35,703 nucleotides of DNA, taken from the IMG/VR virus record IMGVR_UViG_2547132279_000002; one strand, 5' to 3'. The notes under the pieces were generated by a model, which was given only the letters and a program-made list of their open reading frames with translations, was not told where the DNA came from and ran no database searches. A program made the translations under genes and the position numbers. Below, piece after piece: positions 3,673 to 35,703 of this stretch. How positions within the stretch are numbered: position 1 is the stretch's first letter; every line of letters begins with the position of its first letter. This stretch comes from a virus. Its lineage: Duplodnaviria; Heunggongvirae; Uroviricota; Caudoviricetes.

Positions 3673-3687
3673 CGCTGACTCTCCGGA

Positions 3688-4428: not shown

Positions 4429-4435
4429 ATCGTCC

Positions 4436-5406: not shown

Positions 5407-5417
5407 ACATCCCCCTT

Positions 5418-5771: not shown

Positions 5772-5782
5772 AGCGCCTCCCG

Positions 5783-6181
5783 TTATTGCATTCTGGCCAG
5801 GCCACGTTCTGTCATTTCGGCTGCCACACCGGCAGAGACACGAAACGCCGTTCCCGGCAGCACAAATGCCACAGGTTTATCCCGCGTGGCGTGAAGTGCA
5901 TCAGTATGCAGCGTCACCAGTGCCACGACCGTGACCAGTTCAGCCGTATCCTGAATCACGGTATCCGGCTGCGCTGATATCACCTCATTTTCATGCCCGG
6001 TCAGCACATTTTCCCGGCTGAGAGGGGTGTCCTGACCGGCAGTTTCATCCGTGTCATCAAGCTCTTCTTCCAGCTCTGCCACACGAAGCGCCAGTTCTTC
6101 TTTCGTTCCCGTCAAACTGATATCGCGGTTCAGTTGCTCACCCAGCTCCTGAAGACGGGCAATCAGTTCATCTTTCGTCAT
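5783..6181 (-). CDS. FI: DNA packaging protein FI
   Basis: ORF contains MTKDELIARLQELGEQLNRDISLTGTKEELALRVAELEEELDDTDETAGQ..., like lambda gpFI; start set at the internal ATG preceded by GGAGG. Confidence 0.85.
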   Translation of the reverse strand: MTKDELIARLQELGEQLNRDISLTGTKEELALRVAELEEELDDTDETAGQDTPLSRENVLTGHENEVISAQPDTVIQDTAELVTVVALVTLHTDALHATRDKPVAFVLPGTAFRVSAGVAAEMTERGLARMQ

Positions 6182-6204
6182 GAACTCCTCCACAGAGAGA
6201 AAAT

Positions 6205-6218
6205 GGCCCCGAAGGGCC
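6205..6218 (-). other. perfect GC-rich hairpin (ggccc-cgaa-gggcc) in the E-FI intercistronic gap
   Basis: Seen directly: inverted repeat ggccc / gggcc with a 4-nt loop between the E stop and the FI ribosome binding site. Confidence 0.5.
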
Positions 6219-6222
6219 ATGA

Positions 6223-7248
6223 TTACGCCAGTTGAACGGACACGAACTCATCAGGATCAGCCAGCAGCATCAGCGGTGCTGACTGAATCATGGTGAACTC
6301 ACGCGCCGGATCGCCGGTGGTCACCCAGTTTTTCGGGTAACGGGCAGAGGCGTTAATGCCTTCGCGCTGTGCGTCCGCATCCTGAATGCAGCCATAGGTG
6401 CGCAGACCGCGAGCCTGAGTGTTCCCCAGCACCATCGTGTTGTCCGGCAGGAAGTTCTTTTTGACGCCGTTTTCCACGTACTGTCCGGAATACACGACGA
6501 TGGCCACATCGCCATACATTCCCTTATAGGACACCGCTTTGCCCAGGTCTTTTACCGCTGTCTCCAGCTCGGAATGAGAGCCGCGACGGGTATCCAGCTT
6601 CTCCTTGACGGCTTTGAAGGAACGGAACAGCGCCCAGCCTTTCGGGTCAAACACGATGATATTCACCACACCGCTGGCGTTCAGCGCGTAGGCTTCGATA
6701 TCGTCGGTCGGGTCATACGTGGACTTGTCACGCTTGCTCCACTCCGTGCCGCCGGACTGCGTGATGTTATTCGCCGCACTGCGGCCCATATCCACCTCAA
6801 CCGGATCGAAGGCTTCACCGGTCATGGTGTATTTGCCCTTAAGCACGGCAGAAACTGCCTGCATCTCTTCGACCTGGGCAATCGCCAGATTTTCATCCAG
6901 CATATTCTGCCGAATAATACGGCGACGACGGTAAGCCGGGTCCGCCAGATTCTGCGGATCTTCATCCGGCAGGCGACGCAGGGTCATCTGCGGATTCACC
7001 TCATGCTTGGGTTTGACATATCCCGGCGTAAATTCAGAGGTGGAGCCGCCACGGGAACGGATAACCTCACCGGAAACAATCGGCGAAACGTACAGCGCCA
7101 TGTTTACCAGTCCCGGAATTTGTGAGAGATAGACTTTCTCCGTGGTGAAAGGATAGGTTTCACGGAAAAACAGGCGCAGAAACAGCGGATCGAACTTAAA
7201 GTGATGCTGGGTCGATGCCAGTAATTCTGCAGTTGTATATACAGACAT
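6223..7248 (-). CDS. E: major capsid protein E
   Basis: 341-aa ORF MSVYTTAELLASTQHHFKFDPLFLRLFFRETYPFTTEKVYLSQIPGLVNMALYVSP..., matches lambda gpE. Confidence 0.95.
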   Translation of the reverse strand: MSVYTTAELLASTQHHFKFDPLFLRLFFRETYPFTTEKVYLSQIPGLVNMALYVSPIVSGEVIRSRGGSTSEFTPGYVKPKHEVNPQMTLRRLPDEDPQNLADPAYRRRRIIRQNMLDENLAIAQVEEMQAVSAVLKGKYTMTGEAFDPVEVDMGRSAANNITQSGGTEWSKRDKSTYDPTDDIEAYALNASGVVNIIVFDPKGWALFRSFKAVKEKLDTRRGSHSELETAVKDLGKAVSYKGMYGDVAIVVYSGQYVENGVKKNFLPDNTMVLGNTQARGLRTYGCIQDADAQREGINASARYPKNWVTTGDPAREFTMIQSAPLMLLADPDEFVSVQLA

Positions 7249-7261
7249 AAATTATTTCCAT

Positions 7262-7282
7262 AAAAAAAGCCGCACAGGCGGC
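7262..7282 (-). terminator. hairpin plus U-tract between D and E (terminator or attenuator-like)
   Basis: Minus strand reads GCCGCCTGTGCGGC followed by TTTTTTT, located after the D stop and before the E start. Confidence 0.45.
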
Positions 7283-7303
7283 CTTTGTTGATGAAGGGGA
7301 AGA

Positions 7304-7636
7304 TTAAACGATGCTGATTGCCGTTCCGGCAAACGCGGTCCGTTTTTTAGTCTCGTCGCTGGCAGCCTCCGGCCAGAGCACATCCTCATAACGGAACGAG
7401 CCGGACTTGTAGAACGTCAGTGTGGTGCTGGTCTGGTCAGCAGCAACCGCCAGAATGCCAACGGCTGCACCGTCGGTGGTGCCATCCCACACAACCAGCT
7501 TACGGGTAGTGCCATCCAGCATCAGCGGGGTCATTGCAGGCGTTTTCGCACTCAATCCGCCAGGCGCAATTGCTGTATGAGCCGGATCACTGTTACCCAG
7601 CGGCTGGTAATGGTTAAACTCTTCTTTTGTCGCCAT
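7304..7636 (-). CDS. D: head decoration protein D
   Basis: 110-aa ORF ...[32 protein letters not shown]...[11 protein letters not shown], matches lambda gpD. Confidence 0.95.
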
Positions 7637-7645
7637 AACTGCCTC

Positions 7646-8053
7646 TTATACCGGTAAAGCTTCAGGTGTATTAAGTAATTCTTTATTGGTATCAGATGCC
7701 AGGTTACCTGCAGCCAGCGGTGCCGGTGTACCCTGCATCAGACGATCCAGCGCAGTGTCACTGCGCGCCTGTGCACTCTGTGGTGCTGCAGCCAGAATGC
7801 GGCGGGCCGTTTCCACGGTCATTCCGGGGGTTTCTGCCAGAACGCGCGCCTGTTCTTCGCGTCCGTGAGCCTCCTCACAGTTGAGGATCCCCATAATGCG
7901 GCTGTTTTCTGCCGCAACCGCAGCGGTGATCTGCGCGTTCACGTCCGGCTGCGCCGCGCTGGCGTTTTCGCCCTCCGTCGCTGGCACCACGTCAGTAACG
8001 TCAGCCTGCGAAGCAGTGGCTGAAACAGTTGTTGATTGAGTCTCTTTGGTCAT
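7646..8053 (-). CDS. Nu3: scaffolding protein Nu3 (in-frame internal start within C)
   Basis: Internal ATG giving MTKETQSTTVSATASQ... to the shared stop; position follows the lambda C/Nu3 nested arrangement. Start placement is inferred. Confidence 0.55.
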   Translation of the reverse strand: MTKETQSTTVSATASQADVTDVVPATEGENASAAQPDVNAQITAAVAAENSRIMGILNCEEAHGREEQARVLAETPGMTVETARRILAAAPQSAQARSDTALDRLMQGTPAPLAAGNLASDTNKELLNTPEALPV

Positions 8054-8957
8054 TCGCCCTCCTGAGAGACGGGATTTACGTGCATCCAGTGCATCACGCA
8101 TAACGGTGATCGCATCGGTGCTGTTGACAAGTTCATCAGCCAGTCCGGCATCAATGGCCTCCTGACCGCTGTACACTGCAGCCTCGGTATCCAGCACAGC
8201 CTGCACGGACAGGCCGGTATATGCCGACACCTTCTGCGCAAACATCCGGCGGGTTGCATCCATCCGGGACTGCAGTGTCTCCCGGACGTCATCCGGAAGA
8301 TGGCTGTAGGGGTTGCCATCCACCTTATGGCTGCCGCTGTAAATCAGCGTGATTTCCACGCCCTGTTTCTCCAGCGCAGCACCGTAATTACTGTGAGCCA
8401 TCATGACGCCGATGGAGCCTGTCCGGGCGGTCTGCGTGACCAGACGCCGGGAGGCGGCGCTGGCAAGCAGCTGACCTGCACTGCAGTTCATGTCGTTGGC
8501 CAGCGCCCATACCGGTTTTATGTCTCGCACACGGGCGATGATGTCAGCACAGTCAAATGCTCCCGCCACCATCCCGCCCGGTGTGTCCATATCGAGCAGA
8601 ATGCCGTCCACCATCGGATCGCTGGCAGCCTGTTGCAGACGGGCGATAATGCCGTTGTAACCGGTCATTCCCGAATACGGCTGCAGCGCCCGCGTCCGGC
8701 TGACCAGCGTACCGGACACCGGCAGCACGGCGATGCCGTTCATGACCTGATAACTGCGGGCCTGTCGTGGTCCGTCATCATCACCGGATAACGCCAGCGC
8801 CGCGGGTGCCTCTCCGGCAGTCAGGCTGTCGCCGGACACCGCATCCGTCAGGCGACTGATCCCAAGCTGGCCTGCAAGCGCACAAAAGAAAACCCGCGCA
8901 TAGGCGGGTTCAAGCATCAGCGGCTCATTAAAAGCCATGCTGGCAATATGCGGGAGA

Positions 8958-8977
<20 letters not shown>
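7646..8977 (-). CDS. C: head maturation protease / scaffold C
   Basis: ORF contains VTAELRNLPHIASMAFNEPLMLEPAYARVFFCALAGQLGIS..., matching lambda gpC; start placed at GTG (8975..8977) preceded by GAGGAGGAGAAGA; the longer ORF in the track is an upstream extension. Confidence 0.85.
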
Positions 8978-12582
<3,605 letters not shown>

Positions 12583-12612
12583 GTAAGCGACTCGTCAGAA
12601 CCGTATTGATAT

Positions 12613-14184
12613 TTACTGAGAGGTCAGATCAACTTTCCAGGGCAACAGATCGCGTACCCGGTTTGCCGGCCAGTCCTGGATATGTTCAATGACGTAACGC
12701 AGCCACTTTTCTGGCTCCACATTGTTCAGACGGCATGTGCCGATCAGCGAGTACAACACCGCCGCATGTTCACCACCGCTGTCGGAACCCGCAAACATCC
12801 AGTTTTTCCGGCCTACGACCACTCCCCGTAAGGCGTTCTCTGCGATGTTGTTGTCGATTTCCACCCAGCCATTACTGCAGTACACGTTCAGTGCATCCCA
12901 CTGTTTCAGCAGGTATGCGAACGCTTTTGCCGTATCTGAGTGACGCGACAGTGTTTTCATCTGTTGCTGTATCCAGTCATACAGTGACTGCATCAGTGGC
13001 GCGGCTCTGGCTTTTCTTGCCGCCAGACGCTGTTCTGCTGAACAGCCCCGGACCTCTGCCTCGATGGCATACAGTTCACCGATACGCTGCAGGGCTTCCG
13101 TGGTGATGTAGGTGGGCGCTTTTGCATGCACATCGTGGATTTTTCTCCGGGCATGAGCCATACACGCGGCTTCCGTTATTCTGCCGGATTCGTATAACGC
13201 CCGGTAACCACCGTAAGCATCGGCCTGAAGCACACCGCTGTAACCGGCCAGGTGATTTTGTGGATGGATACCTTTCCGGTCCGGACTGTACGCGAACCAG
13301 ACCGCCGGGGGCATCTGTGAACCGGCGTTACGGTCATCACGGACGTAGACCCACAGCCGGGCTGTCCGGGTTTTACCGCTGCCCGGCTCCTGGACCGGGA
13401 CGGGGATATCATCAGCATGGACTTTACCGGGCATCAGCACATACTGGCGCAGGACGTCATACAGCGGCTCCAGCAGTTCAGCAACAGCACCTGTCCAGCG
13501 CCCCAGTGTGGCACGGCTCAGCTCCACTCCCTGACGACGGTATATTTCTGACTGGCGGTATAACGGCAGATGGTCTGCATACTTCCCGGTGACGATATGA
13601 GCCAGAAGCCCCGCTCCGGCATAACTGCGTGCAATGGGTTTTGAAGGTACTGGTGCCTGCACGATATGGTCGCACCGGCAACAGGCCAGTTTCGGACGTT
13701 GTGTTTCGATAACCTTAAAAGCGCTGCTGATAAGCTCCAGTTGCTCTGACACATCACACCCCAGAGGACTGAGGTCACCACCACAGGCCGGGCAGCATTC
13801 CTCTTCCGGCCGGATGACCCGGGTTTCACGGGGAAGTGAGGCCGGTAACGGCTTACGGGCTGAAGACTGGCGCAGGGCGGATGGCAGTACCGGGTCATAT
13901 TGCTCACCCAGCGTTTCCGCCATTTCTTCCTGAAGTGCGCTGATTCGCTCCTGGGCTTCCTGTATCTGCCGTTCGGTTTTAGCGCGAAGTTTTTCTGAGC
14001 TTTTACCGAACTGCATGCGCTGCAGTTTCGCAACCAGCGCCTTCAGCCGGTTGATTTCGGAAGCATAAGCCGCCACCCGCTGTGAGAGCAGGCGGTTGTA
14101 TTTCGCCATCTGGCGGATGGTGTCCTGTTGCGTCTGCAACAGTGCCCGCAGGCGGGCATTCTCATGAGCAAGTGAGGTGTCCAT
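12613..14184 (-). CDS. IS66-family transposase (Orf3/TnpC)
   Basis: 523-aa ORF with N-terminal coiled-coil, CxxC...CxxC zinc-finger-like segment and DDE-type core as remembered for IS66 transposases. Confidence 0.85.
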
Positions 14185-14203
14185 ATCCTCACTTTACAAC
14201 GGG

Positions 14204-14551
14204 TTATATGCGGATGCCAGCGCGTTCCGTTCGTTTCGGGTGCTTCCAGTTGATACCTTCAAGAAGCATAGATAACTGAGCCGGAGTAAGGTGCACCTTG
14301 CCGTCACGGGTAACCGGCCAGACGAAGCGGCCCCGCTCCAGGCGTTTGGTGAAGAGGCACAGTCCGTCACTGTCAGCCCACAACACTTTTATCTGGTCAC
14401 CCCGGCGTCCGCGGAAGATGAACAGATGCCCGGAGAACGGGTCATCCTTCAGGACGTTCTGAACTTTTGATGCCAGGCCGTTAAAACCATTTCGCATGTC
14501 GGTGATACCGGCAACCAGCCAGATACGCGAACCGGCAGGGAGAGATATCAT
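14204..14551 (-). CDS. IS66 Orf2 (TnpB accessory protein)
   Basis: 115-aa ORF MISLPAGSRIWLVAGITDMRNGFNGLASKVQNVLKDDPFSGHLFIFRGRRGDQIKVLWADSDGLCLF..., characteristic IS66 Orf2. Confidence 0.85.
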   Translation of the reverse strand: MISLPAGSRIWLVAGITDMRNGFNGLASKVQNVLKDDPFSGHLFIFRGRRGDQIKVLWADSDGLCLFTKRLERGRFVWPVTRDGKVHLTPAQLSMLLEGINWKHPKRTERAGIRI

Positions 14552-15201
14552 TAGTGGCTGCTCCCTTTCATTTCGCGGATAAGTGTCTGTAATAACGCCG
14601 GTGTCAGTTCACCTTTCAGCCTGAGAGTTCCGGCCGGCAGAACCAGCTCACAGCACAGACTGTCGGGCGGTGTATTTATCTGTTCAGGTATCTGCACTGG
14701 TGCCGGGATTTTATTATCCGGCTCCGGAGTTAACGTCACGGGAAGTAGCGATGTTTCATGTTCGCCGGTCGGCTGCAGGCCGCCGTTACGCCAGAGATGC
14801 CGCCAGTTAAAGAGCAGGTTATCGTTGATTCCGTTCTCACGAGCTATTTGTGCGACACAGGCACCGGGTAAAAGAGTTTGCTGAACAAGCCTCCATTTAA
14901 ACTCCGGTGAAAATCGGTTCCGGCGGATTTTCTCTGTTTTCACAGGCTGAGTCACTGTCGGGGCTGAAGGGTATCGCCCCGGGAACAGAGCCCGGGCCAG
15001 TTGCACGCAGGAATATTCTCCGGAAAGAGGCCAGTCAGTGAATACCTGGTGAAATCGCCTCACCAGAGAAAAAATGGCGGTTTTGCTGATACCGGTCTGC
15101 GCAGAAATGCGCGGGTACGACAGTGACTCGTCAAATCTCAGTTGTAGCACACGCAGGATCAATTCCGGATTGTCTGCCAGTACCGCTTTTCGTGCATTCA
15201 T
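14551..15201 (-). CDS. IS66 Orf1 (TnpA accessory protein)
   Basis: 216-aa ORF immediately upstream of and overlapping Orf2 (ATGA), typical IS66 organisation. Confidence 0.75.
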   Translation of the reverse strand: MNARKAVLADNPELILRVLQLRFDESLSYPRISAQTGISKTAIFSLVRRFHQVFTDWPLSGEYSCVQLARALFPGRYPSAPTVTQPVKTEKIRRNRFSPEFKWRLVQQTLLPGACVAQIARENGINDNLLFNWRHLWRNGGLQPTGEHETSLLPVTLTPEPDNKIPAPVQIPEQINTPPDSLCCELVLPAGTLRLKGELTPALLQTLIREMKGSSH

Positions 15202-15286
15202 CTTAAATGTCCCTTTACTGCGAAAATGGACATTAGTATCGGAAACAGGAAAGGGAGGCGAAAGACGGTTTAAATGAGACGGTTAC

Positions 15287-15396: not shown

Positions 15397-15916
15397 TCAG
15401 CAACCCCGATATCAGTTCATCCAGCGCGGCTGCTTTGTTCATGGCTTTGATGATATCCCGTTTCAGGAAATCAACATGTCGGTTTTCCAGTTCCGGAAAA
15501 CGCCGCTGCACCGACAGGGGGAGCCCGTCGAGAATACTGGCAATTTCACCTGCGATCCGCGACAACACGAAAGTACAGAATGCGGTTTCCACCACTTCAG
15601 CGGAGTCTCTGGCATTCTTCAGTTCCTGTGCGTCGGCCTGCGCACGCGTAAGTCGATGGCGTTCGTACTCAATAGTTCCTGGCTGGAGATCTGCCTCGCT
15701 GGCCTGCCGCAGTTCTTCAACCTCCCGGCGCAGCTTTTCGTTCTCAATTTCAGCATCCCTTTCGGCATACCATTTTATGACGGCGGCAGAGTCATAAAGC
15801 ACCTCATTACCCTTGCCACCGCCTCGCAGAACGGGCATTCCCTGTTCCTGCCAGTTCTGAATGGTACGGATACTCGCACCGAAAATGTCAGCCAGCTGCT
15901 TTTTGTTGACTTCCAT
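15371..15916 (-). CDS. Nu1: terminase small subunit Nu1
   Basis: 181-aa ORF MEVNKKQLADIFGASIRTIQNWQEQGMPVLRGGGKGNEVLYD..., matches lambda gpNu1. Confidence 0.95.
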   Translation of the reverse strand: MEVNKKQLADIFGASIRTIQNWQEQGMPVLRGGGKGNEVLYDSAAVIKWYAERDAEIENEKLRREVEELRQASEADLQPGTIEYERHRLTRAQADAQELKNARDSAEVVETAFCTFVLSRIAGEIASILDGLPLSVQRRFPELENRHVDFLKRDIIKAMNKAAALDELISGLLSEYIEQSG

Positions 15917-16140
15917 TGTTCATTCCACGGACAAAAACAGAGAAAGGAAACGACAGAGGCCAAAAAGCCCGTTTTCAGCACCTGTCGTTTCCTTTCTTTT
16001 CAGGGGGTATTTTAAATAAAAACATTAAGTTACGACGAAGAAGAACGGAAACACCTTAAACCGGAAAATTTTCATAAATAGCGAAAACCCGCGAGGTCGC
16101 CGCCCCGTAACCTGTCGGATCGCCGGAAAGGACCCGCAAA
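15917..16140 (-). other. cos region (cosB, cosN, cosQ side)
   Basis: Reverse complement of 16081..16110 reads ttacGGGGCGGCGACCTcgcgggttttcgc, i.e. the lambda 12-nt cohesive end GGGCGGCGACCT (cosN at 16094..16105) at the expected ~190 bp upstream of Nu1. Confidence 0.85.
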
Positions 16141-16304
16141 ATGATAATAATTATCATCTACATGTCACAACGTGCATCTACGCCATCAAACCACGTCAAA
16201 TAATCAATTATGACGCAGGTATCGTATTAATTGATCTGCATCAACTTAACGTAAAAACAACTTCAGACAATACAAATCAGCGACACTGAATACGGGGCAA
16301 CCTC

Positions 16305-16499
16305 ATGTCAACGAAGAACAAAACCCGCAGAACAACAACCCGCAACATCCGCTTTCCTAACCAAATGATTGAACAAATTAACATCGCTCTTGAGCAAAAA
16401 GGGTCTGGGAATTTCTCAGCCTGGGTCATTGAAGCCTGCCGTCGGAGACTAACGTCAGAAAAGAGAGCATATACATCAATCCAGAGTGATGATGGATGA
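16305..16499 (+). CDS. hypothetical small protein, possible ribbon-helix-helix DNA-binding fold
   Basis: 64-aa ORF; segment RNIRFPNQMIEQINIALEQKGSGNFSAWVIEACRRRL resembles a beta-strand plus two helices of RHH (CopG/Arc-like) proteins; lies in the cos-bor interval. Confidence 0.35.
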   Translation: MSTKNKTRRTTTRNIRFPNQMIEQINIALEQKGSGNFSAWVIEACRRRLTSEKRAYTSIQSDDG

Positions 16500-16861
16500 A
16501 CATCCCGGTTTCTTCCACCATCGCACCGGAAAAGCGACTATGAGGGTAACCCTGCGTCTGTCAGCACAGTAAAACCCGGTGTGCATCGTTTTTGATTATT
16601 CCCGCACACTCACGCAGAAGGAATTCCCCGTCGGGCTACGGTCATGGTTAATGCGGGAATACGGCGACGATACAGCGCAGCTAAAAGGGTAATAGACGGA
16701 TAGACCGGTTTATTTCATTCCACAGGATTCTGAGTGTCCCCAACTTCCTCCAATAGTCTGAGCGTACACCTATATAGTTTTAATTTTCATCAATCCATTT
16801 AACTATCGTTTAATTGTTGTCACATAGGATTCTGCCGTTTTTAACAATGCAGGATAATAAG

Positions 16862-17155
16862 ATGAAAAAAATGTTGTTTTCTGCCGCTCTGGCAATGCTT
16901 ATTACAGGATGTGCTCAACAGACGTTTACTGTTGGAAACAAACCGACAGCAGTAACACCAAAGGAAACCATCACCCATCACTTCTTCGTTTCGGGAATTG
17001 GACAGGAGAAAACTGTTGATGCAGCCAAAATTTGTGGCGGCGCAGAAAATGTTGTTAAAACAGAAACCCAGCAAACATTCGTAAATGGATTGCTCGGTTT
17101 TATTACTTTAGGCATTTATACTCCGCTGGAAGCGCGTGTGTATTGCTCACAATAA
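16862..17155 (+). CDS. bor: Bor lipoprotein (serum resistance, lysogenic conversion)
   Basis: MKKMLFSAALAMLITGCAQQTFTVGNKPTAVTPKETITHHFFVSGIGQEK..., matches lambda Bor; lipobox LITGC; start set at internal ATG 16862. Confidence 0.9.
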   Translation: MKKMLFSAALAMLITGCAQQTFTVGNKPTAVTPKETITHHFFVSGIGQEKTVDAAKICGGAENVVKTETQQTFVNGLLGFITLGIYTPLEARVYCSQ

Positions 17156-17166
17156 TTGCATGAGTT

Positions 17167-17182
17167 GCCCATCGATATGGGC
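17167..17182. terminator. palindromic hairpin between convergent bor and Rz
   Basis: Perfect palindrome gcccatcgatatgggc between the bor stop (17155) and Rz stop (17187). Confidence 0.4.
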
Positions 17183-17186
17183 AGCT

Positions 17187-17648
17187 CTATCTGCACTGCT
17201 CATTAATATACTTCTGGGTTCCTTCCAGTTGTTTTTGCATAGTGATCAGCCTCTCTCTGAGGGTGAAATAATCCCGTTCAGCGGTGTCTGCCAGTCGGGG
17301 GGAGGCTGCATTATCCACGCCGGAGGCGGTGGTGGCTTCACGCACTGACTGACAGACTGCTTTGATGTGCAACCGACGACGACCAGCGGCAACATCATCA
17401 CGCAGAGCATCATTTTCAGCTTTCGCATCAGCTAACTCCTTCGTGTATTTTGCATCGAGCGCAGCAACATCACGCTGACGCATCTGCATGTCAGTAATTG
17501 CCGCGTTCGCCAGCTTCAGTTCTCTGGCATTTTTGTCGCGCTGGGCTTTGTAGGTAATGGCGTTATCACGGTAATGATTAACAGCCCATGACAGGCCGAC
17601 GATGATGCAGATAACCAGAGCGGAGATAATCGCGGTTACTCTGTTCAT
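17187..17648 (-). CDS. Rz: spanin inner membrane subunit Rz
   Basis: ORF contains [51 protein letters not shown]..., matches lambda Rz; start ATG overlaps the endolysin stop. Confidence 0.9.
17246..17428 (-). CDS. Rz1: spanin outer membrane lipoprotein Rz1 (embedded in Rz, +1 frame)
   Basis: 60-aa [50 protein letters not shown]..., matches lambda Rz1; lipobox VVGC. Confidence 0.85.
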
Positions 17649-18142
17649 TGCTGACCCCACAAACAGATTTCACGCTCAATCTCACGACGAGTCATGAGAC
17701 CTTTCCATTGCTTACCGCCAGCATATGTCCAGCGACGTAGCTGATCACATGCGCCTTTGATATCGCCCTGGTTTATTTTGCGAAGAAGCGTCGATGTTCT
17801 GAAATTGCCAGCACCCACGTTGTAAACGAATGAGTAAAGAGCGCCGCGCGTTGTTTCCGGTATATCGACTTCGATGTACGGGTTAATTTGTCTGGCGACA
17901 GTGGCAAGGTCTTTATTCAAGAGTGCTTTGCATTCTGCTTTGGTATACGTTTTACCGAGCATGATGTCTTTTCCTGTATGCCCGTGACATACAGTCCATA
18001 CACCAACAATATCTTTGTATGGTATGTAGCTGACACCTTCCAGACCATCGTTACCACTTGGGCCAGTGATTAACACTGATGCTATAGCAATTGCTCCGCC
18101 ACCAATAGCAGCAGCAACGGCTTTTCGTAATGATGGAGGCAT
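17645..18142 (-). CDS. R: SAR endolysin (phage 21 R21-type lysozyme)
   Basis: 165-aa [47 protein letters not shown]..., with N-terminal Gly/Ala-rich signal-anchor-release segment and T4-lysozyme-like core; matches remembered phage 21 / DLP12 RrrD endolysin. Confidence 0.9.
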
Positions 18143-18357
18143 TATTCACCTCTCGCAGCCTTGCGCTTATCTTCTTTAATCTTGAAATAAAGGTTTGTCA
18201 GGTACGTCAGCAGGCCAAATACCAGGCTACCCAGCACACCTATTGCTGCCCACTGTGAGGGCGTGACTTTATCGAGCAGCTGTAAAAACCAGTAACCGGC
18301 ACTACCTGCTGAGGTGCCATAGGCGACACCCGTTGTTAACTTATCCATGGATTTCAT
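18142..18357 (-). CDS. S: pinholin (phage 21 S21-type)
   Basis: 71-aa [74 protein letters not shown], matches S21 / DLP12 EssD. Confidence 0.9.
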
Positions 18358-18465
18358 AACCCCACCTCGCAGACAAAGCGGGTGTAAATTGAGGGAATAC
18401 TACGAAACGTAACAGACTCGGAGTCAGTGAATAACTCAGGTATTGGGTTATCAGCTAATATCGAG

Positions 18466-18499
18466 ACTCAAAAAATGGAAAAACCCGCTCGACGGCGGG
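18466..18499 (-). terminator. rho-independent terminator upstream of S (candidate late-operon tR'-like terminator)
   Basis: Minus strand: stem cccgc / gcggg with 6-nt loop followed by TTTTTCCATTTTTT; about 120 nt upstream of the S start. Confidence 0.5.
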
Positions 18500-18929
18500 T
18501 TTAAGCTGTGTGACGAAGTAACCACTCTTAACAGCATAACCAATTTTTTACGTACGTAAACCACTAAATGATATTTGCGAGAATGCTACCGAGTATTGAA
18601 AACACCACTACAAATACATAAGCAAATCTCAACAAATAACCAACAAATAATTTCCAGTGTTATTTTTAGCCGATTTAAATTGAACCTTCAAATCATAGAG
18701 CACTTATAAATAACAACCGTTAATATAAATTGGCTAATAGATTTATTTTTATTCAGCCAAGAGCCATGAATAGGATTCGATAGAAAAAAGTTCAGATAAA
18801 AATAGAGATCTACTTCACAAATCAAACGAGAAACCAAAACTTACATCTTGAAATAATCATATTGATTAGATGAATATTTATCGCGCAGTGACATCATTTT
18901 TTAATAATAGTTCAAAAAAAGGGCTCACG

Positions 18930-20027
18930 ATGAAAAAATTAACAGTGGCAATTTCTGCTGTAGCTGCATCAGTACTGATGGCGATGTCTGCTCAGGCAGC
19001 TGAAATTTATAATAAAGACAGTAACAAGCTGGATCTGTACGGGAAAGTTAATGCTAAGCACTACTTCTCCTCTAATGATGCAGATGATGGTGATACTACT
19101 TATGCCCGTCTTGGCTTCAAAGGTGAAACCCAAATCAACGATCAACTGACTGGTTTCGGTCAGTGGGAATATGAATTCAAAGGCAACCGCGCTGAATCTC
19201 AAGGTTCCTCCAAAGATAAAACCCGTCTTGCCTTCGCTGGCCTGAAATTCGGTGACTACGGCTCCATCGATTACGGCCGTAACTACGGTGTAGCATACGA
19301 CATCGGTGCGTGGACTGACGTTCTGCCAGAATTCGGTGGCGATACCTGGACCCAAACAGATGTGTTCATGACTGGTCGCACCACTGGTGTTGCAACCTAT
19401 CGTAACAACGACTTCTTTGGCCTGGTTGATGGTCTGAACTTTGCTGCTCAGTACCAAGGCAAAAACGATCGTAGCGATTTCGATAACTACACCGAAGGTA
19501 ACGGTGATGGCTTCGGTTTCTCTGCTACCTATGAATACGAAGGATTCGGTATCGGTGCAACTTATGCGAAATCTGATCGTACCGACACTCAAGTTAATGC
19601 AGGGAAAGTTCTTCCTGAAGTATTTGCTTCCGGTAAAAATGCAGAAGTTTGGGCCGCAGGTCTGAAATATGACGCTAACAACATTTACCTGGCCACTACC
19701 TATTCTGAAACCCAGAATATGACTGTATTTGCTGATCACTTCGTTGCTAATAAAGCTCAAAACTTCGAAGCTGTTGCACAATATCAGTTCGATTTCGGTC
19801 TGCGTCCGTCCGTTGCTTACCTGCAATCTAAAGGTAAGGATCTTGGAGTATGGGGCGATCAGGACTTAGTCAAATATGTTGATGTAGGTGCCACCTATTA
19901 CTTCAACAAAAATATGTCAACTTTCGTTGATTACAAAATCAACCTGCTTGACAAAAATGACTTCACTAAAGCACTCGGTGTAAGCACTGATGACATCGTT
20001 GCTGTAGGTCTGGTTTACCAGTTCTAA
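18930..20027 (+). CDS. outer membrane porin (OmpC/NmpC/Lc family), prophage moron
   Basis: [47 protein letters not shown]...; signal peptide, general porin motifs and C-terminal aromatic residue (ends YQF); located between Q and S in opposite orientation like nmpC in DLP12. Confidence 0.9.
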
Positions 20028-20164
20028 TCTGATTACGAAAAAGATATGTTGCGGGAGGCTTTGCCTCCCCAACATATAAGTGGCTCCCTCAAGCCACTTC
20101 CTTTAGGAGCACAACCTTGCTTCTAACTATATAAACCTTCTGTTATATATTACCCTTTATTTTT

Positions 20165-20190
20165 GGGGGCGTCTCAACGCCCCATTTTTA
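20165..20190 (+). terminator. rho-independent terminator downstream of porin gene
   Basis: Stem ggggcg / cgcccc with 6-nt loop followed by ATTTTTAATAATTTTT. Confidence 0.55.
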
Positions 20191-20216
20191 ATAATTTTTA
20201 GTAAACAATTGGCATA

Positions 20217-20600
20217 TTAATTAGAGTTATTAACAACGATATCCATCTCTAACCGGATATCTAATGCCATTAACATCCCTTCAATTATGCCCTCAGCCTT
20301 CTGTAACCTTTTCCCGATATAACCATCAGAGCAGCAATGCTTACCTGCCAGTGACATGAATGTCATACCGACTACATAATAATCTACTAATAAATCGTGC
20401 AAATCGCTGTTGTTCTTTTTCAGACGGGCCATGCACCCGCAAATAATCATCGCGTCATCGTCACAACATTGCGGGCGAGATTTTACTTTTGAAGTAATTA
20501 ATCCCTTAAAACCGGCGGCAATGGACGACCAGGTCACATCTTCATGATTATTAGCCGCCCACGCTCCCCAACGCTCAAGAACCATCTGAATATCACGCAT
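20217..20600 (-). CDS. Q: late gene antiterminator Q (DLP12 QuuD-like)
   Basis: ORF contains [35 protein letters not shown]...[20 protein letters not shown]..., matching remembered QuuD; start set at the internal Met. Confidence 0.8.
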
Positions 20601-20685
20601 CAACTTACTCCACAAAAATCAGACCAGAACGCCAATTACAAGCAAAAATCAACAAAACAGTATTAGTTGATTGTTATCTCTGACT

Positions 20686-20823
20686 TCATACTCCTGCTCC
20701 TGTCAGTGTTTTGGCGTAATTCTTCAGTATTCGGTAATCGGTCAAAACAGAACCGGGGAAACGATATAAGCGCAGGCGCACCCAGCGGCGGCGAAGACGC
20801 TCTGCCATATAAGACTCAAACAT
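20686..20823 (-). CDS. ylcG: small protein YlcG-like
   Basis: 45-codon [48 protein letters not shown] whose ATG overlaps the rusA stop; resembles DLP12 YlcG. Below the ORF-track length cut-off, found by hand translation. Confidence 0.5.
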   Translation of the reverse strand: MFESYMAERLRRRWVRLRLYRFPGSVLTDYRILKNYAKTLTGAGV

Positions 20824-21185
20824 CATTCATCTCCCAGTTCGGTGATGGTCAGTTCCAGCCTCCCACCTTTGGTAACAGGCATCTTCACAACGCGGTAATC
20901 AACGACCTGAGCATCATCCAGCCAGAAACCTGCTTTAGTGAGTGCGTCAAAAGCGGCTTTTTGCAGATTATCCAGGTCACGGCGACGGCGATCCGGCATG
21001 TGGCACTCAATGCGGATTTTCACAGGCATAGCCAGGCCGATATCCAGCATTGCGTTTTTAATGATTCGGGCGACGTTATCGCGGTATGCCTGCCCTTCTG
21101 CGCTGATGTGCGTGCGCCCGCGATTATGCCGGTAGTAGCGGTTATTGCTCGGAGGCCAGGGTAATGTGATGCTGTAGGTATTCAC
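20823..21185 (-). CDS. rusA: Holliday junction resolvase RusA
   Basis: 120-aa [50 protein letters not shown]...[34 protein letters not shown], matches RusA. Confidence 0.9.
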
Positions 21186-21472
21186 GCCTTAATAACCCCC
21201 TCTTTCAGCCAGATAACCTGTGTTCTCGCCATACCTTCCAGCGCGCATTCTTTTGCATATGCAGCATCGACAAAATGTGTGCGGCGGTCGATTTCGTCGT
21301 GGCAGGCAGAACATGCAATGGTGGCAATCAGGTCTGGCGGTTTGATACCGGTACCGCACAATCCAGCCAGCCGGATATGTGCCAGTACAGACGTTTCAGG
21401 GTTGCCATTACATACGCCAGGGATTCTTACCTGGCATTCCCGACCACGCGCTGCTTTTCTCAAATCAGCCAT
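21182..21472 (-). CDS. YbcO-like protein (DUF1364 family)
   Basis: ORF contains [64 protein letters not shown]..., cysteine/histidine-rich, as DLP12 YbcO; start set at the internal Met. Confidence 0.7.
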
Positions 21473-22090: not shown

Positions 22091-22612
22091 GCTTCACCTC
22101 CGCAGAGGTCAAACGTTGGATGCAAAGAATCGCAGGTGCATTTCTGCATCTGTGAAGGGAGAAGAGAGTTTAGATTGTATGTGCGCATAAACGTCCCCGT
22201 TTAGCGCAGAAGTCACCGGAGGTGTTCAGGCTCCGATGCGATAATTATGACGATCTGATTTTGGAAAATCAAATTTAAGTAACCGCCAACCTATAATTTT
22301 CAATCAAGATTTCATTTATTAGCTCACTCATATAAAAATACATTACAACGTTTTTATCTCTTAATTTATGAAGGCAACCTCGAAAAACAAATCACCCAAA
22401 CACTTTAAAACAATTAAACCCGTTTAAAATTACAATTACATTTAGAAAGCAAACTTTCAAAAGATGTGATGATACAATTGCATAAAACAAATACTTGGGG
22501 TAAAATATAAAAATAACACTCCCAGCTTAACGCTAGGTGGCGGTAGCGTGTATTTTTCAAATACGCCTATCACCCCATTATGTTTTTTCATATTTAAGAG
22601 ATTGGTTATATA

Positions 22613-24399
22613 ATGGAACTAATATACACTTATATCCACAATTATAAAGGTTTAAATAAGCTGTCCCTCCCCACCTCAAGTAAATTTACCTTTAGCCATA
22701 AAGGTAACGTCCTTACAATTGCTAAGAAAGATTTAAGTCGTGACTATTATAGCAATATTCCCTGTACATTAATTTTAGGGAAAAATGGTGTTGGAAAGTC
22801 ATCAATTTTAGATTTCATTAGTAGCTTTATTTACGATTTTGAAGGTAGCGGTTATAGCATCTGGAATGAAAATGATAAACTTATAATTATCACAAGCAAT
22901 TGCAAACCTCCTGTAATATTATCCAAAATGCAAACGGAACTAATTGATAATAATGAACATTTTTTTAGAAGAAACAAAATCAATCTAATAAAGATAAATA
23001 ACACAATCGACCTCAAAAGTATGTTAGTTGGACAAAAAAGAAAAAAAACGATTCGATTTCTAAAGATTTATCACTGTCATATTTTTTGCAAGGCAGTAAA
23101 ACACGCAATAAGAAATTACTCAAGCAATTAATTTCATTTTCAGACCACAGTTCATGGGCTAAAGACAATTTATCAAGACTTAATACTAAATTTCAATTTG
23201 AAATAGAAAACTCACCAGTATATAAAATAAATTCTATTATAAAAAACAATGATATTGGTGACAAAGGACTTTTTGGAGCTATTGAATACTTTTTTGATAC
23301 GTTGAATGATAGAATTAAAAACAATAAACTCCCTAGATATATTGAACGTGATTTAGATTCTTTAGGTATTTCACTTGTGGATATACTCAATCATGGGATA
23401 GATTACGATGAAGATTTTATTATTAGCATTATTTTTAACAAAGAAAGATCATTAAATTTCCTCGCAACCTTTTCATATCACAAAATAATTTACTTGATGC
23501 TTTTGCCTGCAATAACATGGCATTTACTCAAGACATCAAAAATCCCTAAAGACATATGTGAGACTGTTTATTTATTTTGCTTGTGTCGCGCGTATCTTGA
23601 AGAAAAAGATCCAGCAAAAACTATATTAGAGACTTTAGATGAATTTAACGTTAATGTTAAATTTCAGTCAAAAATAGAAATGTTATCTGAACATATCTCC
23701 GACATTATAGGTAATATAGCTGATATATTAGAAAACACAGCAAGAGACCCAGTTGATAGTTTATCTTTCACAGTTGAAGAACCAAAGCAGATTATGGAGT
23801 TAATAAGATTAGTTGATAGGTTACCAAATGGCGTATCATCGCGATTTAAGTATGGTTGGGATTCACTTAGTTCAGGAGAGTTTGCAAAATTAAACCTTTT
23901 CAATCAACTTTATGATTCTATAGAACATAGCAACAGCAAAAATATTATAATATTATTAGATGAGTGTGATTTATATCTACACCCTGAATGGCAACGAGTT
24001 ATTTTTTCAGAAATTATAGATTTAACATTAAGATATAAACAAAGTAAAAATATTCAATTAGTATTTACAACTCACTCCCCTATACTCGCAAGTGATTTTT
24101 TGCCATCAGATATAATATATCTTGAAAGAGATCATAATCAAGGAACCTATACTAAGAAAGTAGAGTTTGGTTTCGGAGCAACCATATCAGAATTATATAT
24201 AAATGGTTTTTTTATTGATGCTACAATAGGACAGCACGCACATAATTATCTAAACTCAATAATAAAAAACTCAGATGACGGTAATTTAAATAAACATCAA
24301 AAAACCATACTATCACAAATTAAAAATAAACTTCTCATAAATCTTATTGATCTGAAGTTAAACAAAAACAATGATAAAACAGATTCTTTTGAGAAATGA
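22613..24399 (+). CDS. ABC-type (AAA15/AAA21-like) ATPase, reading frame broken at a poly-A run (~23034..23049); PtuA-like
   Basis: Two overlapping ORFs (22613..23131 and 23086..24399) in different frames. Walker A LILGKNGVGKSS in the first; signature-like LSSGEFAKLN, Walker B IIILLDECDLYLHPEW and H-loop FTTHSP in the second. The second frame is open from 23002; the switch falls in aaaaaagaaaaaaaa. Confidence 0.65.
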
Positions 24400-24408
24400 G
24401 TAAAAAAA

Positions 24409-25601
24409 ATGATAAAAATAAACAAAGACTTCAATGTTGATGTAAAAATATCCTTTTCTAAAATAGTAAGCAAAGTTAATAAACGCGTGAAGCAGAGGAA
24501 GTTACTGAACATTACTCCCGATGAAGTAGAGTTTCTAAATACAATCAACAAAAAAACTATCAGAAAATTAGTTTTTTCAAAACCCAAACGATTAAAAAAT
24601 ATAATCATCAAAATATACAACAAACACCCAATTGTGTGTGAGTACTATTCTCCTGATTATTTTTTAAGGCACTTAAATTTACAACCATTAACAAACCTAC
24701 AATTACCTTTAAAAACAAAAGAAACAAAAAAATAGTTTATAATGAACTAGCACATGCCATCAAAATAATCACATCTTTCTCTCAAACTACACAAAGCCTA
24801 ATACTTGAGGATATATTAAATACACATTTCTCACCACAAAAATTATCTAGTTTAAGAGATAAGATTCTTAATCTTATAAGTATCAAGAATGGTGGTCCTT
24901 TAAAGGAAAATACCATTAAGTTATTTCCATCATGGGTTAAAAATATTTCTGAAATATTTAAATACTCACTTATTGATAGAGAAACAGCGTATCAATTGAA
25001 CAGTTTTTTAGACATTAGCATATGCCCATATTGCAACAGTGAAGAAATTGAACAAGTAGAAGACCATACAGGTACTAGCTACAGGCCAGCATTTGATCAT
25101 TTCATACCTAAGTACAAATATCCGTTGATCTCCTTTAGTTTATTTAACTTAATTCCTAGCTGCACTAAATGCAATAGTACTTATAAAAAATCACTCGATC
25201 CGATCATGAGCCCATTTTCAAATCCTTTTCTTGAAGGTGTAAATGACACTCAGCTTTTTGATTTTAATTATGACATTGATTATATATATAGAGATGGCCA
25301 AATTGATGATGATCACATTCAAATTATACTAAAAAAACAAAAAAACAACATCGATGAAAACATGGCTAAACTTAGCATAGAGAATAGATATAATTCACGC
25401 ATTAGAAAGAAAGCAGTTAGATTAATTGCAAAGAGAGCATTTGATCTAAAAGCTTATGAAGAAAATTTCATTATAGAACCAACTCTTTTCGCTACTTTCG
25501 GTTACGAGACTAACATTGAGCCGCTAAAGCATATGCATAAAAAACTTACTCAAGATGCAATATTAGTATTCTGCAACAAACAAGTACCGTTAATTGAATA
25601 A
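24409..25601 (+). CDS. HNH endonuclease-domain protein, frame broken at a poly-A run (~24711..24731); PtuB-like
   Basis: ORF 24996..25601 carries CPYCNSEEIE...FDHFIPKYKYP...NLIPSCTKCNSTYK (HNH with two CxxC pairs) but starts at TTG; its frame is open back to 24657 with no ATG and abuts ORF 24409..24735, which ends in gaaacaaaaaaatag. Confidence 0.55.
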
Positions 25602-27681: not shown

Positions 27682-28221
27682 TCATATTGCCCCCAACATG
27701 GTGGTAACCATCGCCATCAATGGACCAGCCAGATCCGGGTCCACACGAAACATCGACACAATACCTTCACTAATTTCCTTCAGTTTCTGGTGGCGTGGTG
27801 CGTTGAGAATGACAGCCTGTTTTGCCTCACTGAGTTCCTTTTCCATTTCAGCCAGCCGAGTCATGAAGCTATCCTGCTCAACCAGGTAACCGCGATATTC
27901 CAGCGGTAGTACCGCCAGAATTGCCGGGGTCAGTTCACGCACGTTATTTCGGTATTTTTCAGAATCGAATTTGTTATCGAGGAAGCGGAACAGCTTCTGG
28001 CGTGCACGGCTGACATCATCAGGGAAATCGATGGTGCCGTCGCCCTGCTCCCGATACTCATTCACAATGAGTGCGGCAACGACATCCTGATTATCTACAG
28101 CCGACCAGGCGCGGACGGCATCACGGATTTTTTCGTGGTCTGGCACCTGTTTTGTTTGAGAACGATTTATCACCGCAGTCGGGCTAAATCCGCTAGTCTG
28201 TTGGTATGTAAGTGGTTGCAT
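27682..28221 (-). CDS. CII-position regulator, YdaT-like
   Basis: 179-aa ORF in the cII position (between cro-like gene and O); segment TPAILAVLPLEYRGYL resembles the Rac YdaT motif IPAILAILPRELRHRL as I remember it. Confidence 0.55.
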   Translation of the reverse strand: MQPLTYQQTSGFSPTAVINRSQTKQVPDHEKIRDAVRAWSAVDNQDVVAALIVNEYREQGDGTIDFPDDVSRARQKLFRFLDNKFDSEKYRNNVRELTPAILAVLPLEYRGYLVEQDSFMTRLAEMEKELSEAKQAVILNAPRHQKLKEISEGIVSMFRVDPDLAGPLMAMVTTMLGAI

Positions 28222-29381: not shown

Positions 29382-30245
29382 ATGGATTGTGACGCTTTAC
29401 AGGATATAAAAATCTCTCTTAGGTATGACGGAAAAGATGCTTTAAATCATGAAATAGATTTGAACTGCCTAGGAGAATCCCTAAAGGGTTTTTCTAAAGT
29501 TCTCTCAACAGCAGCTTCTTTCTCTGTTACACAAAAATATAGTAAATACATTAATTATCAGGAAGTTAAGGTTTACGCACGCGAAGCAAAAGCTAACTGC
29601 TTTACTCTTGAAGCAGTTCTTAACTTCGCCACTCAGAACCAGTTGTTCTCGGGGATCGCCGCAACTATACTTGGCGCAATACTACAATATATTTTTGCGA
29701 GAAATTCTAACAAGAAAGATGAAATGAAAGCTTTGCAGCAGTCACTTGAAAAGGCCATAGAGGCACTAGGAAACAAGGATGCTGGAACCATTGATAAGTT
29801 GATCTCTTTGATTGACCGAATGGCTGTAGAGCTTCGCCCCTCTGTAAGGCAGGCAGTATCACCTATTGGTAATACTTGCGATCAGATAAGTGTTGCAACA
29901 AATGTTGACGGCTGCCTTCTAAAAGTTAACGAGAGAGATAAAGCTGAAATTGATAGGCTTGATGATGATGAAGTTCTCGGTCTTCGTGAGTATCGTGCTT
30001 TTCTTACAGAATTTGATGCACAAAATATGACAGCTAAAATAATTTTAGATGGTGATGACTCAAAAAAGAGAATCACTGCTGAAATTAGCGATCCAGCTGC
30101 AGGAAAGAAGAATAACCCGTATATTAGAGCTCTTAGTGCATATATATCAACCAAAGGTGATCCATCTGCAGTATTCACTATAACCGCAAAGGCTACTGTT
30201 AAAAAAGGCCAGATAAACAGGTTATTTATTGTAGATGCGAAATGA
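29382..30245 (+). CDS. hypothetical 287-aa protein in the rex position immediately downstream of cI
   Basis: Long ORF co-oriented with cI, visibly more AT-rich than cI, with one hydrophobic segment [19 protein letters not shown]; followed by a strong terminator; no family recognised. Confidence 0.6.

Positions 30246-34610: not shown

Positions 34611-35703
<1,093 letters not shown>

Follow-up and report, generated by a model that had tools for sequence, protein, structure and literature searches.

The window, by which we mean the whole stretch of DNA analyzed here (35,703 nucleotides of the Caudoviricetes record IMGVR_UViG_2547132279_000002), carries a late-gene region in which a porin gene lies between the antiterminator gene Q and the holin gene S, on the opposite strand. 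The features of this region and of the nearby cos site are as follows.

16094-16105, minus strand: cosN (GGGCGGCGACCT), where the right end of lambda joins the left, found by exact match
16862-17155, plus strand: bor/iss, outer-membrane lipoprotein, a serum-resistance conversion gene (PF06291, E 6.6e-31)
17187-17648, minus strand: Rz, inner-membrane spanin subunit (PF03245, E 2.8e-54)
17246-17428, minus strand: Rz1, outer-membrane lipoprotein spanin subunit (PF06085, E 2.9e-20)
17645-18142, minus strand: R, SAR (signal-anchor-release) endolysin of the R21/RrrD type (PF00959)
18142-18357, minus strand: S, class II pinholin (PF04971, "P21 holin S", E 2e-35)
18472-18502, minus strand: intrinsic-terminator-like hairpin with a U-run, ~125 nt upstream of S (terminator scan and fold)
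18506-18526: second annotated CRP site (J02580 misc_binding, identical sequence)
18802-18822, plus strand: CRP site at the porin promoter, placed by sequence identity with a misc_binding feature of J02580
18848-18885, plus strand: inferred porin promoter (homology to K-12 and CRP spacing)
18930-20027, plus strand: intact porin gene nmpC/lc, 365 aa (PF00267 over its full profile, 1-337 of 337, E 1e-156)
19966-19969, plus strand: unoccupied IS5 target CTAA, at the junction of the K-12 nmpC fragments
20028-20190, plus strand: structured porin 3′ UTR, probable counterpart of the IpeX sRNA region of DLP12 (187/189 identical to K-12)
20036-20077, minus strand: candidate first terminator after the late promoter, a 15-bp hairpin followed by CUUUUU (RNA fold)
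20126-20177, minus strand: candidate Q-dependent late promoter (promoter scoring and sequence reading)
20217-20600, minus strand: Q antiterminator, 127 aa (PF06530, E 4e-53)

The genes named in the preliminary description (Bor, Rz/Rz1, endolysin, holin, porin and Q) were all intact, as judged from their open reading frames and full-length Pfam matches. Gene identities, integrity, homology and the terminator structures were read directly from the DNA.

S was identical to EssD at all 71 positions (71/71) and to S21 at 61 of them (86%), and R shared 163 of its 165 residues (98.8%) with R21 and likewise with RrrD, in agreement with the earlier assignment of holin and endolysin to the phage 21 type. 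The first residues of S, MKSM, can be read as a dual start, in which Met1 gives a 71-aa antiholin and Met4, at 18348, a 68-aa holin. TMD1 of S (residues 8-29) is rich in Gly, Ala and Ser, weakly hydrophobic and below the hydropathy threshold, which was exceeded only at residues ~31-60, and TMD2 (~36-57) is strong. Pinholins of the S21 type form ~2 nm holes that depolarize the membrane and through which the endolysin cannot pass. R begins with a weakly hydrophobic, Gly/Ala-rich segment (residues ~7-27), has E35, D44 and T50 of a T4-lysozyme-type domain and matched the structures PDB 4ZPU and 3HDE at E ~1e-111. Rz1 lies wholly inside Rz in a different frame, giving an embedded two-component spanin; its lipobox is VVGC and its mature part is rich in Pro; the start of Rz is most likely ATG 17648 and not, as first proposed, GTG 17660.

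The preliminary description had also called Rz/Rz1 and bor lambda-like. This holds in so far as they are 92-99% identical to their lambda counterparts, but Rz1 (60/60 versus 59/60) and Bor (96/97 versus 89/97; named Iss by RefSeq in the identical strain) are nearer still to phage 21 than to lambda, while Rz matched lambda at 151 and phage 21 at 149 of 153 positions. The bor gene is on the strand opposite to the lysis genes. DNA homology to lambda broke off precisely at 17648, where R meets Rz, and phage 21 homology, at 95.6% DNA identity, extended from 16571 up to the start codon of S (18358). Judged by these alignments, the S-R-Rz-Rz1-bor block is simply 21/DLP12-like, with S and R the only place inside it where lambda and phage 21 differ. 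The idea that lambda-like Rz/Rz1/bor mark a special mosaic junction was rejected, because phage 21 carries the same genes. The two diverge upstream of S, where the window carries the porin unit and QuuD, and phage 21 carries tRNA genes together with a Q21/pR′ of its own. A search for tRNA genes was negative here; in phage 21 a pair of them lies between S and the late promoter.

Q was identical to QuuD of DLP12 at all 127 residues (127/127). The gene had been recognized in the preliminary description, and only its coordinates needed correction, to a start at 20600 and a length of 127 aa, as in QuuD. The protein was 29% identical to Q21 (E 4e-11), matched the Q21 structures PDB 6P18/6JNX (E 7.6e-7) and gave no alignment with lambda Q; by this comparison it is a member of the Q21 family and not of the lambda Q family. 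A phage-82-like assignment was rejected in favor of a distant relative of Q21. Late promoters of the Q21 type consist of a Q-binding element and a σ-dependent pause, followed by a terminator. The candidate late promoter has a −35 element TTGAGA (20177-20172) and a −10 element GGTAAT (20154-20149), and the −10-like TATAGT at 20131-20126 is a possible σ-dependent pause element; no Q-binding repeats were recognized at it. A consensus scan gave no convincing late promoter, and a separate scoring of the same AT-rich DNA returned numerous weak candidates. Q, RpoE and Hha regulate the lysis operon of DLP12, whose reporter constructs have been described as "-121 to +650" (PMC7918800), a hint that the late start may lie ~500-650 nt upstream of essD and not beside Q. 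The hairpins at 20036-20077 and 18472-18502 would act as terminators on the late-gene strand.

The porin was identical to PA-2 Lc at 363 of 365 residues and, equally at 363/365, to K-12 NmpC with IS5 removed; identity to K-12 OmpC, OmpF, PhoE and OmpN was 66%, 63%, 65% and 69%, respectively. It has a signal peptide of 23 aa and a mature protein of 342 aa, and residues 24-365 aligned end to end with the solved structures of OmpC, OmpK36, PhoE and OmpF. The loop 3 motif PEFGG is at residue 133, and the protein ends in the C-terminal Phe (...VGLVYQF). Alignment to porins, including OmpC, OmpF, NmpC and Lc, revealed neither a frameshift nor an insertion, consistent with the earlier view that the gene is uninterrupted. 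It starts at 18930 (MKKLTV..., preceded by AGGG); the upstream in-frame ATG 18870, which had been considered as the start, was discarded. General diffusion porins form trimeric channels with measurable conductance. Conductance of NmpC has been reported in literature cited by PMC8544407. The CTAA at 19966-19969 is the site at which K-12 DLP12 and the laboratory phage 434B carry IS5; the 434B annotation reads "IS5 insertion after codon 346", and according to it this IS5-bearing copy was apparently acquired via recombination with DLP12.

Over positions −210 to −1, the region upstream of the porin was identical to K-12 nmpC at 209 of 210 nucleotides, and the single difference is common to PA-2. 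In K-12, an active, CRP-activated σ70 promoter lies inside −199 to −1, and 5′ RACE led to a G start (PMC11677980). From this homology and the CRP spacing we infer a −35 box TTGAAA at 18848-18853, a −10 box GAATAT at 18872-18877 and a start at G18883 or G18885; the center of the CRP site, 18811.5, is at −71.5 from G18883. A consensus σ70 scan did not call this promoter. The preliminary description had looked to 18700..18930 for a promoter of the porin's own and had held that the porin could be expressed from the lysogen. Near-identity of the region to the mapped and active K-12 promoter makes both probable.

Downstream of the porin, 163 nt separate the stop codon from the end of an intrinsic terminator (stem 20166-20183 plus a T-run, from the terminator scan), and this 3′ UTR folds at −62.4 kcal/mol (z = −8.7). 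IpeX, an RNA of ~167 nt, comes from the DLP12 porin transcript, at its 3′ end (PMC12197685); this product of the phage porin transcript represses ompC/ompF (PMC12197685, PMC5069750). On the strength of its near-identity to K-12, the 3′ UTR at 20028-20190 probably corresponds to the IpeX region of DLP12. Rfam gave no match over the porin 3′ UTR, and IpeX has no Rfam model; a permissive search of 15800-21200 and a search of the whole window at gathering thresholds returned only chance hits to microRNA models, which fall on an inverted repeat at 15938-16000.

The surrounding backbone is that of lambda, with a lambda cos, as had been claimed. Lambda coordinate 1 aligned at 16105 and coordinate 48502 at 16106, in addition to the exact cosN, and the genes from Nu1 through the tail were 97-99% identical to lambda coordinates 1-13382. 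An IS66-family element interrupts terminase gene A, and an IS21-family element (IS21/IS100) interrupts the integrase gene. The prophage is related to DLP12 but has decayed less, and these two IS insertions have inactivated it. Because terminase A and integrase are both split, the block acts as a fixed chromosomal island and not as a productive phage. The decay is recent, since the phage genes, the two IS insertions aside, remain at 97-99% identity to lambda.

Taken together, these results make it highly probable that the stretch is the DLP12/PA-2-type late block of a lambdoid E. coli prophage on a lambda-type head, tail and cos backbone. This confidence is a joint one for the best explanation, taking in the gene identities, conversion by the porin and IpeX, and the Q-driven lysis mechanism. 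The mechanism draws promoter activity, CRP control, the role of IpeX and porin expression in lysogens from literature on near-identical sequences. In the repressed prophage, a CRP-dependent σ70 promoter belonging to nmpC/lc would drive its plus-strand transcription, which would stop at the strong terminator ~160 nt beyond the stop codon. The product would be a 16-strand general diffusion porin that joins the outer membrane, and IpeX arising from the 3′ UTR would lower OmpC and OmpF, so that porin and IpeX would together reshape the lysogen's cell surface as a lysogenic conversion, with bor/iss as a second conversion gene. Upon induction, the Q21-family antiterminator QuuD would act on RNA polymerase at a late promoter whose predicted position is downstream of Q, and the modified polymerase would read past at least two intrinsic terminators, antisense through the porin, and into S-R-Rz/Rz1. 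The S pinholin would then depolarize the inner membrane, causing release and activation of the membrane-tethered SAR endolysin, and the Rz/Rz1 spanin would disrupt the outer membrane as the last step. Since the prophage is defective, the lytic half of this mechanism may never proceed as a phage cycle in this copy.

If the late promoter is where we place it, the IpeX region would lie fully antisense to this promoter, its leader RNA and the first terminator, and late transcripts would cross the whole porin gene in antisense. The convergent, overlapping porin and Q-dependent late units could thereby form a mutual-interference switch: in the lysogen, expression of porin and IpeX would hold back leaky late transcription of the lysis genes, and the porin would be turned off by induction. 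We regard such a switch as a long shot; no test of interference between the two units was found in the accessible literature.

The late region may have become a non-phage region, with the lysis cassette and porin domesticated for cell-wall turnover, vesicles or biofilm inside a decaying prophage, an explanation modelled on a proposal for K-12 DLP12. The splitting of terminase A by an IS66-family element and of integrase by IS21/IS100 speaks for it, as do the collinearity with DLP12, down to the integrase remnant that there adjoins argU, and the report that the DLP12 lysis module is transcribed and affects vesicle production (PMC7918800). On the other hand, head, tail, replication, recombination and immunity genes remain, at 97-99% identity to lambda, and mEp332 and Turner are examples of phages that can be induced, form plaques and carry near-identical modules. 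We give domestication a real chance, somewhat short of even, and it is compatible with a DLP12/PA-2-type late block rather than opposed to it. That the lysis genes are instead of the lambda type, and the phage 21 call wrong, has next to no probability. Lambda S is a 107-aa class I holin and lambda R a 158-aa transglycosylase, and neither S nor R of the window aligned with them, global alignment matching 4/17 and 2/20 positions, which amounts to no similarity, against 86% and 98.8% identity to S21 and R21. The Pfam families are PF04971 and PF00959, lambda DNA homology stops at 17648, and nothing was found in support of lambda-type lysis genes.

The porin itself could be intact yet effectively silent, "quiescent" under ordinary conditions and of little effect on the outer membrane, which we consider unlikely. 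Its promoter hexamers are weak and were missed by the consensus scan, and Prilipov et al. in 1998 reportedly described the intact nmpC of E. coli B as quiescent, which counts in favor of silence. In K-12, moreover, nmpC is subject to repression by OmpR, IHF and MprA and to sRNA control (PMC11677980). However, the same promoter yields K-12 transcripts detectable by 5′ RACE (PMC11677980), and the nmpC transcript was strongly induced, by 16.5-fold, at 37°C (PMC8544407). In an LF82 lysogen, the homologous NmpC gene of Perceval, with which the window shares the module at 92% identity, was expressed 10-fold above local background (PMC9928086). The window promoter also equals that of PA-2 apart from the length of one A-run. 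Expression of the porin within the DLP12/PA-2-type block remains the preferred reading. For annotation, the strain has an intact, probably expressed additional porin plus an IpeX region plus bor/iss; the additional porin may alter phage and colicin sensitivity, antibiotic permeability and heat tolerance.

The discovery value of the block is small, as it has long been described and is widespread in E. coli. The Q-porin-S/R-Rz/Rz1-bor arrangement is already known, ordinary and frequent among E. coli genomes: coverage of the block reached 80% or more in 2,195 of 5,426 complete E. coli genomes and in at least 29 sequenced phage records. Mosaic origin and a phage-borne porin have been known since the 1980s from PA-2 lc and the K-12 qsr′/DLP12 region, and the lc arrangement of PA-2 was published in 1986 by Blasband, Marcotte and Schnaitman (GenBank J02580). 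The preliminary description was silent on this 1986 precedent, on the high frequency of the module and on the defective state of the prophage. The phages mEp332, Turner, PhiR34_1, ev243 and Perceval and the laboratory mutant 434B carry Q-porin-S-R-Rz-bor at 92-98% identity across all 4 kb; these are complete or inducible phages, whereas the prophage in the window is defective.

Among porins, OmpC, OmpF, PhoE and OmpN, and Salmonella OmpD, share with nmpC/lc the Pfam family, length, PEFGG motif and C-terminal Phe. Unlike these chromosomal genes, nmpC/lc is phage-borne in an AT-rich setting (32% GC in the upstream region), and its control is probably CRP-dependent, whereas that of chromosomal porins is EnvZ/OmpR- or Pho-driven.

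The closest systems are PA-2 and DLP12. PA-2 (J02580) has Rz, R of the SAR type, S, lc on the opposite strand and the end of Q in the same order and orientation, at 97.1% DNA identity over 17455-20254 (2.8 kb). Its Lc differs by two residues (R99H and V154F), its promoter is identical except for the A-run length, and the window retains the CRP sites annotated in it. PA-2 occurs as a free phage; the window copy lies within a defective prophage. With DLP12, whose qsr′ region has the order quuD-nmpC-essD-rrrD-rzpD/rzoD-borD, the preliminary description had seen a parallel except for the intact porin. The likeness proved closer than stated, the two being collinear from the int/xis remnant through ybcN-quuD-nmpC-essD to nohD, at 97-98% from nohD to ybcN and at 99.7% in the int remnant, which is the one that adjoins argU in DLP12. 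The K-12 porin differs from that of the window only by IS5, after codon 346, and two residues, and K-12 DLP12 is without the head, tail, replication and immunity genes that the window prophage keeps.

ORF calling revealed seven uninterrupted genes in the 16.8–20.6 kb region, each with a full-length Pfam match, and required only minor corrections to the coordinates of the preliminary description. An in-frame ATG upstream, at 18870, was considered as the porin start and replaced by the MKKLTV start at 18930.

Features of the block
16094–16105, lambda cohesive-end sequence GGGCGGCGACCT
16862–17155, plus strand, bor/iss
17187–17648, minus strand, Rz
17246–17428, minus strand, Rz1, embedded
17645–18142, minus strand, endolysin R
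18142–18357, minus strand, holin S
18930–20027, plus strand, porin
20217–20600, minus strand, Q antiterminator (127 aa)

We compared the proteins with those of lambda, phage 21 and DLP12, the cryptic prophage of E. coli K-12. S was identical to EssD of DLP12 (71/71) and shared 61 of 71 residues with S21, while R matched R21 and RrrD at 163 of 165 positions each; neither gave a meaningful alignment with the lambda protein, in agreement with the phage-21-type assignment made earlier. R also matched the solved structures 4ZPU and 3HDE (RrrD and R21) with E ~1e-111. S has the MKSM dual start and two segments of which the first is weakly hydrophobic and the second strongly so; R has a Gly/Ala-rich N-terminal anchor as well as Glu35, Asp44 and Thr50. 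Features of this kind are expected of a pinholin and a SAR-endolysin. Rz, Rz1 and Bor had been called lambda-like, which their identities to lambda support (151/153, 59/60 and 89/97), but they are simply genes common to lambda and phage 21 (149/153, 60/60 and 96/97). DNA homology to lambda spans bor–Rz and ends exactly at the R/Rz junction (17648), whereas homology to phage 21 begins at 16571 and reaches the S start codon (18358). Combined with the protein identities, these limits indicate that the S-R-Rz-Rz1-bor cassette, taken whole, is phage-21/DLP12-like. Q was identical to QuuD (127/127), 29% identical to Q21 (E 4e-11) and unrelated to lambda Q; the solved Q21 structure 6P18 matched it with E 7.6e-7, and both belong to Pfam family PF06530.

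The mature porin aligned end to end with the solved OmpC, OmpK36, PhoE and OmpF structures and contains the PEFGG loop-3 motif and the C-terminal Phe. Its identity to the K-12 porins was 66% (OmpC), 63% (OmpF), 65% (PhoE) and 69% (OmpN), compared with 363/365 both for Lc of phage PA-2 (GenBank J02580) and for K-12 NmpC, once the two IS5-separated NmpC fragments were joined. The CTAA site at 19966–19969, which holds IS5 in K-12 and in the laboratory phage 434B, was unoccupied. The full mature-length alignment and the empty site bear out the claim that the gene is uninterrupted. Using a 171-bp probe across this site, we found the nmpC 3′ end uninterrupted at ≥95% identity in ~620 genomes and split in ~300; these counts are approximate, being arithmetic on reported totals with ompC cross-hits subtracted. 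The Q-porin-S block is also found in the laboratory mutant phage 434B (OL657227; L001, 2208–5799), where it contains the K-12 IS5, likewise at the same codon, and where the depositors annotated it as non-homologous to 434; it looks as if 434B gained the DLP12 late region through recombination while grown on K-12.

A check for a promoter of the porin's own had been suggested for 18700–18930. The 210 bp 5′ of the start codon were identical to K-12 at 209 positions, and the sole mismatch, T18860, is also present in PA-2. In K-12, the nmpC σ70 promoter, within −199 to −1, has been deleted, blocked and replaced, its start was located at a G by 5′RACE, and it is described as activated by CRP and repressed by OmpR, IHF and MprA (PMC11677980). 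The PA-2 record annotates two CRP sites, which correspond here to 18506–18526 and 18802–18822. From the mapped K-12 promoter and these sites, we infer a −35 box TTGAAA (18848–18853), a −10 box GAATAT (18872–18877) and a start at G18883, which would place the proximal CRP site at −71.5. A consensus promoter scan made no call at this position. In K-12, the nmpC transcript rose 16.5-fold after a shift to 37 °C (PMC8544407), and in an LF82 lysogen the NmpC gene of prophage Perceval, which carries the same block at 92% identity, was expressed 10-fold over local background (PMC9928086). Considering this together with the promoter identity to K-12 and PA-2 and the K-12 mapping, the porin is likely expressed in the strain carrying this prophage. 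Its stop codon is followed after 163 nt by a strong terminator (stem 20166–20183 plus T-run). This 3′ region was 187/189 identical to K-12, and its fold (−62.4 kcal/mol) was much more stable than those of shuffled sequences (z = −8.7); an Rfam search over it gave no match.

Two terminator-like structures lie on the minus strand between Q and S.

20077–20036, minus strand, 15-bp hairpin followed by CUUUUU (folding)
18502–18472, minus strand, hairpin and U-run (terminator scan and folding)

Directly downstream of Q is a candidate late promoter (TTGAGA, 20177–20172; 17-nt spacer; GGTAAT, 20154–20149), followed by a −10-like TATAGT (20131–20126) that could act as a σ-dependent pause element. The span given for a DLP12 reporter fragment, '-121 to +650' (PMC7918800), hints at a late start site closer to the porin 5′ end. 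Wherever the late promoter sits, Q-modified polymerase would pass at least one terminator before S, and a promoter adjoining Q would also require antisense transcription of the porin gene. It is unlikely that a convergent overlap between this late unit and the porin/IpeX unit (IpeX being the sRNA from the 3′ end of the DLP12 porin transcript) has a regulatory consequence that is both real and undescribed; such a consequence, if true, would be the sole potentially new point.

Elsewhere in the window, a low-GC island (26–32%; 22600–25600) separates the nin-region genes from replication gene P. It encodes an ATPase and HNH nuclease pair matching PDC-M62, a Septu-like candidate defence system in PADLOC (E down to 4e-34 for A; E 3.5e-33 for B). 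Relative to the prophage of strain O114:H49 90-9280, both genes are broken by 1–2 base A-run indels (~23040, 24550 and 24722), possibly homopolymer sequencing errors; the 90-9280 ATPase also looks frameshifted. Directly downstream of the cI-like S24 repressor, where lambda has rexAB, 29382–30245 (plus strand) encodes a protein of 287 aa containing the domains DUF7946 and DUF7947. This uncharacterised gene may serve in exclusion or defence; its only PADLOC match was weak (PDC-S42, E 1.5e-4). With the cro-like regulator on one side and the replication genes on the other, a YdaT-toxin-domain protein (PF06254, E 2.8e-30; 27682–28221, minus strand) takes the position of cII in lambda. The long inverted repeat at 15938–16000 gave weak chance matches to Rfam microRNA models; we rejected it as an RNA gene, as it corresponds to lambda ~106–168, where the terminase-binding sites R2 and R1 of cosB lie in opposite orientations (phage 434 annotation).

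The lambda backbone described earlier was evident as 97–99% identity to lambda coordinates 1–13382 (Nu1 to tail genes) and across cos. The prophage is defective, terminase gene A and the integrase both being split by IS elements. A complete IS66-family element (12583–15283) sits near codon 35 of the lambda-type large-subunit gene A, with three Pfam-confirmed ORFs.

14551–15201, minus strand, TnpA
14204–14551, minus strand, TnpB
12613–14184, minus strand, TnpC

An IS21-family (IS100) element interrupts the DLP12-type integrase beside tRNA-Arg (window ~35007–35703; 35090–36891 in comparison sequence L006); together, the two insertions lock the prophage in place. The 90-9280 prophage was 100% identical over 17187–20615 and 98.4–99.97% identical elsewhere, but it lacks the IS66-family element in A, carrying that IS in its tail region instead; the element therefore seems to have been recently mobile.

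As had been proposed, the layout mirrors DLP12, here with an intact porin gene and an empty IS5 site: the window is collinear with K-12 DLP12 wherever DLP12 sequence survives (int/xis remnant, exoD and peaD remnants, ybcN, ninE, ybcO, rusA, ylcG, quuD, nmpC, essD, rrrD, rzpD, borD, ylcI and nohD). Because the 90-9280 prophage adjoins tRNA-Arg, as DLP12 does, this collinearity indicates a relative of DLP12 that shares its attachment site and has decayed far less. The observation is confirmed and its interpretation supported, but the feature is an already known, widely distributed textbook module: the 4-kb block was ≥80% covered in 29 phage records, and the 3.4-kb region in 2,195 of 5,426 complete E. 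coli genomes (100% identical in three). Since the whole 2.8-kb PA-2 record (Rz end, R, S, lc and Q end) is 97.1% identical to 17455–20254, the order of phage-21-type endolysin and holin, opposite-strand porin and Q corresponds to the PA-2 arrangement published in 1986.
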